A stretch of 64,000 nt of DNA from the NCBI RefSeq assembly GCF_055900595.2, contig NZ_CM148325.1. One strand, 5' to 3'. Shown here piece by piece: positions 21,527 through 21,934 of this stretch; the stretch's first letter is position 1; every line of letters starts with the position of its first letter. The translations under genes were made by a program, and so were the position numbers. The notes below the pieces were generated by a model. It was given only the letters and a program-made list of their open reading frames with translations. It made no database searches and was not told where the DNA came from.

Positions 21527-21640
21527 AAGAAAACATCCCCTGAGAGTTTAATTTTCGTCAAGATGCGTGGCGGACAATCCCCTGCCAGCGAAACGTTATC
21601 TTCCTGCTCCAGGTTTGCGACAATGTGGGGCGTCGCAAAA

Positions 21641-21656
21641 AAGCAAACGTTTAACT
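21641..21656. promoter_or_regulatory. PurR-box-like operator (aaGCAAACGTTTaact) upstream of ghxP; further GCAAACG(T/A)T copies nearby
   Basis: Core GCAAACGTTT matches the established PurR operator consensus (ACGCAAACGTTTTCTT); lies about 115 bp upstream of the ghxP start. Confidence 0.45.
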
Positions 21657-21934
21657 CCGCGCATACAAAACGGGTGGTAAAAAAAAAGCAAACGATTATC
21701 CGGCGATCATAGCGGCTTTTTCAACCTAAGTTTGCTGCTTTTTTCCCTTTTCTTGTATTGACGATGAAAAACCAGGCAATTGATGCGCAAACGTTACCGT
21801 CGATGCGCAAAATTACGGCATTTGTAGGTAGCTTGTAGCGAAGAGTTGCAGTAAAAAATCGTGCAAGATGGCAAAAATATTGCGTCTAAAAAGCGTCTTT
21901 TTGCACTGGCGAAGATACGGAGGCGGCATACAAT

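Follow-up and report, generated by a model that had tools for sequence, protein, structure and literature searches.

Three conserved candidate PurR operators around the predicted promoter of the purine permease gene ghxP in Enterobacteriaceae

The region upstream of the guanine/hypoxanthine permease gene ghxP raises the question of how many operators the repressor PurR has at a single transporter gene, and of how several such sites might act together. PurR is a dimer of the LacI/GalR family, and its corepressors, hypoxanthine and guanine, are the substrates of GhxP. We analysed a 64-kb stretch of DNA (hereafter the window), which belongs to an Escherichia lineage and shows 99.9% identity to one RefSeq 'E. 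coli' genome and ~92% to most others. Here the genes are arranged as yjcE, ghxP (minus strand), the intergenic region studied, SraL/RyjA (plus strand), soxR (minus strand), soxS and pdeC, and the genes nearest to the intergenic region are as follows:

20177-21526, minus strand: ghxP (yjcD), guanine/hypoxanthine permease, a 449-aa open reading frame annotated as GhxP in the matching E. coli genomes
21941-22080, plus strand: small RNA SraL/RyjA (Rfam RF01408, 157 bits)
22073-22537, minus strand: soxR

SraL/RyjA and soxR converge, with an overlap of the last 8 bases of soxR, and the hairpin that they share, AAAGCGCCACAAGGGCGCTTT, looks like a bidirectional terminator. In most Enterobacterales, a gene of ~222 aa for a glutathione S-transferase (GST)-like protein, co-directional with ghxP, is positioned between soxR and ghxP (for example at 1487-2155 of locus L008 and 1420-2112 of locus L058). 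Escherichia lacks this gene; its soxR-ghxP gap is ~549 bp versus ~1300 bp elsewhere, and the gene upstream of ghxP is soxR itself.

Control of ghxP by PurR has been described before. A ChIP-chip study reported the region ryjA/yjcD (4,275,855-4,276,485 in older K-12 coordinates) to be bound by PurR with adenine and unbound without it, and listed one motif there, ACGATAACGTTTGCGC (Cho et al., 2011; PMC3159470). In addition, ghxP was assigned to the PurR-1 iModulon, with one upstream site at K-12 position 4278206, and regulator binding at ghxP was called not previously reported (Sastry et al., 2019; PMC6892915). A further paper summarises the PurR-dependent repression of yjcD by adenine and reports a 4-fold decrease in response to HAP, which is converted to adenine; the ghxP promoter also controls sensitivity to toxic purine analogues (Kozmin et al., 2013). 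The regulator, its target and the direction of control were therefore known; what is new here is two further boxes, B and C, and a conserved three-site layout, neither of which is mentioned in the published literature that we searched, RegulonDB and RegPrecise lying outside its direct coverage.

To evaluate the boxes, a PurR log-odds matrix was built from 27 ChIP-chip motifs (Cho et al., 2011, Table 1), with the yjcD motif omitted because circularity was to be avoided. Both strands of the whole window, ~128,000 positions, were scanned with this matrix, and exact p values were obtained by convolution. Upstream of ghxP, the scan scored four sites:

21785-21800, minus strand: box A, ACGGTAACGTTTGCGC, 16.9 bits, rank 2 in the window, p = 9e-7
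21686-21701, minus strand: box B, GGATAATCGTTTGCTT, ~11.1 bits, rank 8 in the window, p = 3e-5
21641-21656, minus strand: box C, AGTTAAACGTTTGCTT, 18.15 bits, rank 1 in the window, p = 4e-7
21587-21602: box 4, AGCGAAACGTTATCTT on the plus strand and AAGATAACGTTTCGCT in the minus reading, 8.05 bits, rank 26, p = 1.4e-4, at -76 from the ATG

An earlier, sequence-only reading of this DNA had pointed to a strong PurR match at 21641-21656, and box C is indeed the best-scoring position in the whole window. Matches of at least 16.9 bits are expected ~0.1 times by chance in 64 kb; two were observed, 144 bp apart, and the best match in the window after boxes C and A reaches 13.6 bits. Boxes A, B and C (window ranks 1 and 2 and a third match) all lie within 160 bp, and three of the four exact matches to GCAAACGWT in the window fall inside 153 bp upstream of ghxP. 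On these match scores and this density of GCAAACGWT, chance clustering of the boxes was rejected. The weight-matrix scan which that reading had proposed as a check thus returned more than one motif well above chance, not one or none. Its proposal of PurR-type operators upstream of ghxP is supported by the matrix scores and agrees with the PurR occupancy and PurR-dependent repression already published.

All three of boxes A, B and C fit the 16-bp imperfect palindrome ACGNAAACGTTTGCNT with a central CG, and all carry the GCAAAC/GTTTGC half-site typical of published PurR sites. Box B scores below the weakest training site (12.1 bits) and is level with the secondary box in the K-12 purR coding region (10.9 bits), which we take to be operator O2. 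In K-12 itself, box C (18.7 bits) scores above box A (18.3 bits). Alignment and K-12 positions identified the ChIP-chip motif ACGATAACGTTTGCGC (Cho et al., 2011; PMC3159470) as the K-12 orthologue of box A, and the site at K-12 4278206 (Sastry et al., 2019; PMC6892915) is also box A. The ChIP-chip region ryjA/yjcD spans the K-12 copies of A, B and C, and with a resolution of several hundred bp the three sites are not separable in it.

Four motifs, and possibly more, had been proposed upstream of ghxP. Motifs are present at all four of the positions that had been named, and A, B and C exceed chance; the fourth falls below PurR quality, and the number of credible operators is three. At 8.05 bits, ~18 matches as good as box 4 are expected per window, box 4 fails the palindrome, and the sequence at this place is GCGAAACG, not the GCAAACG copy that had been read there. 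Among the Enterobacteriaceae, its ACGTTT core alone is conserved, and both score and conservation led us to reject box 4 as a fourth PurR operator in the window genome. Box 4 is probably a decayed operator, since a strong box, D (ACGTAAACGATTACGT, 16-18 bits), occurs at an ATG distance comparable to that of box 4 in other families, namely in Serratia, Edwardsiella and a Yersinia-like locus.

A different LacI-family regulator with an AACGTT-like core, such as RbsR or Cra at box 4, might be proposed as the one that some of these boxes serve. Box 4 reads AGCGAAACG, which we take to resemble an RbsR operator half-site, and RbsR is reported to influence purine genes, namely add and, through its transcription, purHD. 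Boxes A, B and C carry the GCAAAC/GTTTGC half-site, however, and stand far above background on a matrix made from PurR sites only, and box 4 is only partly conserved; we therefore regard another regulator as most improbable.

The placement of the boxes relative to the promoter is central to what they could do. A single promoter-like site, TTGAAA-18-GATAAT, was found in 21400-22150, with an A-tract-rich stretch next to it:

21695-21724, minus strand: predicted sigma-70 promoter of ghxP, with -35 TTGAAA at 21719-21724, an 18-bp spacer and -10 GATAAT at 21695-21700
21725-21744, minus strand: A-tract-rich stretch directly upstream of the -35

This promoter matches 10 of 12 consensus positions and was the sole sense-strand match in the Klebsiella and Salmonella scans too; GTTGAAA and GATAAT hardly change from genus to genus, and the spacer sequence is variable. 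The A-tract-rich stretch, whose AAA tracts at ~-55 to -50 and ~-45 to -43 are kept in 80-99% of species, appears to resemble an UP element. With transcription predicted to start near 21688, box B would extend from ~-13 to +3, box C would be centred at ~+40 in the leader and box A at ~-105. GATAAT starts one base into box B, and the hexamer makes up most of the left half of B.

We consider it probable that the ghxP control region carries three PurR operators, in which a weak, promoter-occluding box B is backed by a downstream roadblock at box C and by the upstream box A. PurR on box B, which covers the -10 and the start site, would block RNA polymerase, and the need for its left half to double as GATAAT would make box B a weak site by nature. 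Polymerases getting past box B would then meet a roadblock at box C, a strong site located in the leader at ~40 bp. As the transcription start is predicted, the occlusion reading of B and the roadblock reading of C rest on the consensus promoter. Box A at ~-105 overlaps neither the core promoter nor the transcribed region and is without an obvious direct route to repressing the ghxP promoter.

Several other functions for box A were considered. A second ghxP promoter adjoining box A was rejected: the scan gave no qualifying hexamer pair, and candidate hexamers chosen by eye are not conserved. Similarly, the scans of the window, Klebsiella and Salmonella found no promoter-like site near box A on either strand. 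Box A as the operator of a divergent promoter or of SraL/RyjA was rejected, the SraL start (21941) being ~140 bp off; moreover, the GST-like gene parts soxR/SraL from ghxP by ~1.3 kb in most genera, and box A stays put. This GST-like gene ends ~70 bp before box A in most genera, and no intrinsic terminator was found between the upstream gene and box A in Klebsiella and Salmonella. We suggest that a third repressor bound at box A could either help to fill box B, 99 bp downstream, or stop read-through from the co-directional upstream gene, the latter idea being conceivable because no terminator precedes box A in those two genera. The role of box A is the least certain of the three, and the site-by-site roles of A, B and C, as well as any cooperative or graded repression of the kind that the earlier reading had suggested, are what we infer.

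A few further features were seen around box A. A second copy of TTGCGCA (21804-21810, minus strand), located exactly 20 bp upstream of the one in box A, hardly varies between genera; it does not score as a PurR box and has no fitting promoter, and another 10 bp upstream of it, genera other than Escherichia have a conserved TGTT. In comparison with K-12, the intergenic region is least conserved at 21801-21900, from box A to the SraL promoter, with many substitutions in alignment columns 200-300 and the rest near-identical.

The layout is conserved throughout the Enterobacteriaceae. A scan with one genome per species covered 80 ghxP loci from ~30 genera and, with the window and K-12 added, 82 upstream regions. 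Exactly three matches of at least 11 bits on the ghxP strand were found in 79 of these regions, and these are A, B and C. Box C is kept in all 82, at 13-22 bits, box A in 81, and the core of box B, GATAATCGTTTGC, in 80, with B reaching 14.1 bits in many genera. Box A is lost in Pluralibacter, and Mangrovibacter keeps the -35 and GATAAT and has lost the GTTTGC half of box B. The variants seen across the 82 regions differ only at degenerate positions of the PurR motif, with the patterns ACG[A/G][T/C]A[A/T]CG[T/A]TTGCGC for box A, [A/G]GATAATCGTTTGC[C/T]T for box B and AG[C/T/G]TAA[A/T]CG[T/A]TTGC[T/G]T for box C. The majority-base frequency is 0.99 in A, 0.96 in B and 0.72 in the spacer between them.

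The distances between the boxes differ in their constancy. The B-C distance takes 21 different values between 42 and 205 bp, including 42, 43, 44, 45 and 46 bp, and is thus not phased; the C-ATG distance varies from 114 to 190 bp and takes 22 different values. As would be expected of a roadblock operator, box C lies downstream of the predicted start and is retained at any of these B-C distances, which is consistent with a roadblock that would work independently of position. The A-B distance is 99 bp in 79 of 79 regions, and this invariance is the only hint, from sequence comparison, at a geometry-dependent interaction among the sites. The UP-like tract, the -35, the 18-bp spacer and the -10 account for ~55 of the 83 bases between A and B, so that part of the fixed length is due to ordinary promoter architecture. 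The other ~35 bp of the A-B interval substitute freely yet are indel-free, beyond what promoter architecture explains. A small open reading frame (24 codons, plus strand, ATG at 21764) was rejected as the cause of the indel-free interval, as it is broken after four codons in Citrobacter.

Such a fixed distance could reflect cooperative looping, much as in the GalR repressosome or at lac O1-O3, in which contacts between the PurR dimers bound to A and B, and possibly to C as well, loop out the 99 bp between A and B and the strong box A loads the weak box B. The distance is held despite a mean pairwise identity of 59% (minimum 31%) in the 54 nt adjoining box A, and next to intervals, B-C and C-ATG, that take many lengths. 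Mangrovibacter, the lineage without the PurR half of box B, is the only one in the Enterobacteriaceae with a changed distance from A to the -10 (+1 bp), in the Enterobacteriaceae isolate ESL0689, which lacks box C, A and B are likewise 99 bp apart, and in Rahnella, which has B, C and an inverted A-like box, the latter lies 121 bp upstream of B, that is +22 bp or about two helical turns. The in-vivo helical repeat is ~11 bp, and 99 bp corresponds to nine turns.

On the other side, the promoter elements constrain most of the A-B spacer without any looping, the A-B spacing is without variation in the family, so that no periodicity can be read from it, Rahnella being a single case, and Erwinia, Hafnia and Serratia do without box A. 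PurR is described as a dimer without the C-terminal tetramerisation domain (tetramerisation helix) of LacI and is reported to bind the two purR operators non-cooperatively, and we know of no report of PurR looping, the literature that we searched holding nothing to the contrary. Because of this dimeric, non-cooperative behaviour, we rate looping low and hold it to be doubtful. What keeps it in play is that GalR provides a case of LacI-family dimers able to bridge operators, and that dimeric LacI/GalR proteins have been argued to be able to form dimer-dimer loops (Swint-Kruse et al., 2012). A more specific form of this idea, that PurR forms a geometry-dependent higher-order complex at ghxP resembling the GalR repressosome, in which a strong box A at 99 bp loads a weak box B, seems to us unlikely; if true, such a PurR repressosome would explain the repeated replacement of auxiliary PurR sites around the ghxP promoter.

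This replacement is evident in the other families of the Enterobacterales, in which box B is usually kept and is accompanied by a changing set of strong extra boxes. Boxes B and C, or their equivalents, are present in five further families. Erwinia and Hafnia have B and C without A, and in Serratia, which also lacks A, boxes B and C are joined by the strong box D (ACGTAAACGATTACGT, 18.4 bits), located at -88 relative to the ATG. The Yersinia-like locus has B, a weak C and D at -73 from the ATG, and Edwardsiella has B with D at -54 from the ATG. Dickeya and Pectobacterium keep GATAAT, have lost the right half of box B (GTTTGC) and retain downstream boxes. A strong extra PurR box thus stands beside the promoter in nearly every lineage, and it is the identity of this box that turns over, with the combinations B+C, B+C+D, A+B and B+D. 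This turnover suggests selection for several sites, not inheritance of one fixed layout.

The same comparison bears on whether box A might be the only functional PurR operator, with B and C kept for other reasons, as -10 and initially transcribed region or as leader RNA. Both of the papers that name a site list box A alone (Cho et al., 2011; Sastry et al., 2019), the left half of box B is the -10 and would be conserved anyway, and box C adjoins a conserved leader hairpin. However, no position in the window matches PurR better than box C, which also outscores A in K-12, the substitutions in C occur where the PurR motif is degenerate, and the DNA palindrome of C lies outside the RNAalifold consensus structure, the covarying hairpin beginning just downstream. 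Mangrovibacter, Dickeya and Pectobacterium have GATAAT without GTTTGC, so that the GTTTGC half of box B is not required by the promoter; since this half is dispensable for the promoter and invariant in the other lineages, its near-universal retention points to repressor binding. In addition, Erwinia, Hafnia and Serratia carry B and C in the absence of A. We therefore consider a sole operator at box A quite improbable.

To place the site number at ghxP in context, the same matrix was applied to 21 K-12 regions with known PurR targets (65 kb in total). A single match of at least 10 bits near the promoter was found in 16 of them, and ghxP is the only target with two sites of at least 16 bits plus a third. 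The suggestion that several operator-like sites at one transporter gene are unusual is therefore well founded, as ghxP alone among the 21 has such a density. Second boxes were seen at purR (22.0 and 10.9 bits), sdaC (23.4 and 13.9 bits), adeP (20.0 and 12.2 bits, 32 bp apart; locus L086, 1510 and 1542) and xanP (18.6 and 12.5 bits; locus L085, 1478 and 1576), the weaker box of xanP being 98 bp downstream and inside the coding region. The two boxes of K-12 purR are presumably its two operators. Additional sites may characterise the purine transporter genes of the PurR regulon, here ghxP, xanP and adeP. In published annotation, two PurR sites are listed at purR and purA and one at most targets (Swint-Kruse et al., 2012).

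A strong PurR-like box (ACGTAAACGGTTGCTT, 18.9 bits; K-12 3031320-3031335; locus L087, 17321-17336) also precedes uacT, which encodes a urate transporter, by 47 bp. For the uacT region, only a weaker motif, ~680 bp away and inside ygfT, was listed in the ChIP-chip study (Cho et al., 2011; PMC3159470).

The nearest known counterpart of the layout is the ryjA/yjcD region of K-12 itself, the same locus under the same regulator, in which box A (ACGGTAACGTTTGCGC) has ACGATAACGTTTGCGC as its orthologue. The reports on that region give one motif each, and the layout described here adds box B over the -10 and the top-scoring box C in the leader. The ghxP layout may also be compared with other repression systems. 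The purR gene is reportedly autoregulated from two operators that lie past its promoter, and a roadblock is said to repress purB. Like purR, ghxP has more than one PurR operator at one gene, strong and weak, and box C would fit an intratranscript site acting on elongation. Unlike purR and purB, ghxP joins promoter-overlapping, downstream and upstream sites and has two strong sites instead of one.

As in lac and gal, the ghxP promoter is flanked by operators of one LacI/GalR-family repressor, with A upstream, B on the promoter and C downstream, and the A-B distance of 99 bp is near those of lac O1-O3 (92 bp) and gal OE-OI (113 bp). However, the promoter-proximal operator is the strongest in lac and the weakest, B, at ghxP; LacI acts as a tetramer and GalR assembles a repressosome together with HU, whereas for PurR we know of no bridging; and, unlike the looping lac and gal systems, the B-C distance at ghxP is not phase-constrained. 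By analogy, the ghxP layout would work like a hybrid, combining the occlusion of most pur promoters, the roadblock reported for purB and purR, and the flanking auxiliary operators of lac and gal.

On the probable reading of three operators, the sites together would multiply modest single-site repression, giving a deeper and steeper shut-off of purine import at high intracellular purines. As GhxP imports guanine and hypoxanthine, which switch PurR on, the promoter completes a direct feedback circuit on purine uptake. If shown, three conserved operators, including one over the -10, would correct the regulatory map of a region assigned one site, and would explain the saturated ChIP signal at ghxP. 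In addition, ghxP offers a natural system for comparing additive action (occlusion plus roadblock) with cooperative action of a dimeric LacI-family repressor. The known regulatory link is thereby extended, not overturned, and the practical gain is modest because regulator, target and direction were already known.

Downstream of box C, the ghxP leader contains a further conserved element:

21615-21638, minus strand: leader hairpin directly downstream of box C, with a predicted 7-bp stem and a C-rich loop (CCCC)

RNAalifold on 49 species gave compensatory double changes at 7 of 7 pairs (at one pair, for example, CG in 22, UA in 13 and UG in 9), and no Rfam family matched the hairpin. It could serve leader stabilisation or contact with the G-rich ribosome-binding site. 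RNAalifold also pairs the Shine-Dalgarno AGGGGA (21535-21542, minus strand) with a conserved C-rich stretch at 21566-21575, which reads TCCGCC in the window and TCCACC in most genera, and an adjacent GTGGA is a possible competitor for the C-rich stretch. This modelled pairing might constitute a translational switch; both partners are almost invariant, with G-U changes only, and covariation gives the pairing no support.

Finally, a 2.9-kb contig labelled 'Bacillota bacterium MAG' (JAEWQV010000038.1) encodes a GhxP 100% identical to that of the window. Its upstream region is of the Escherichia type and it carries soxR; almost certainly, the contig comes from Escherichia and was assigned to the wrong bin.
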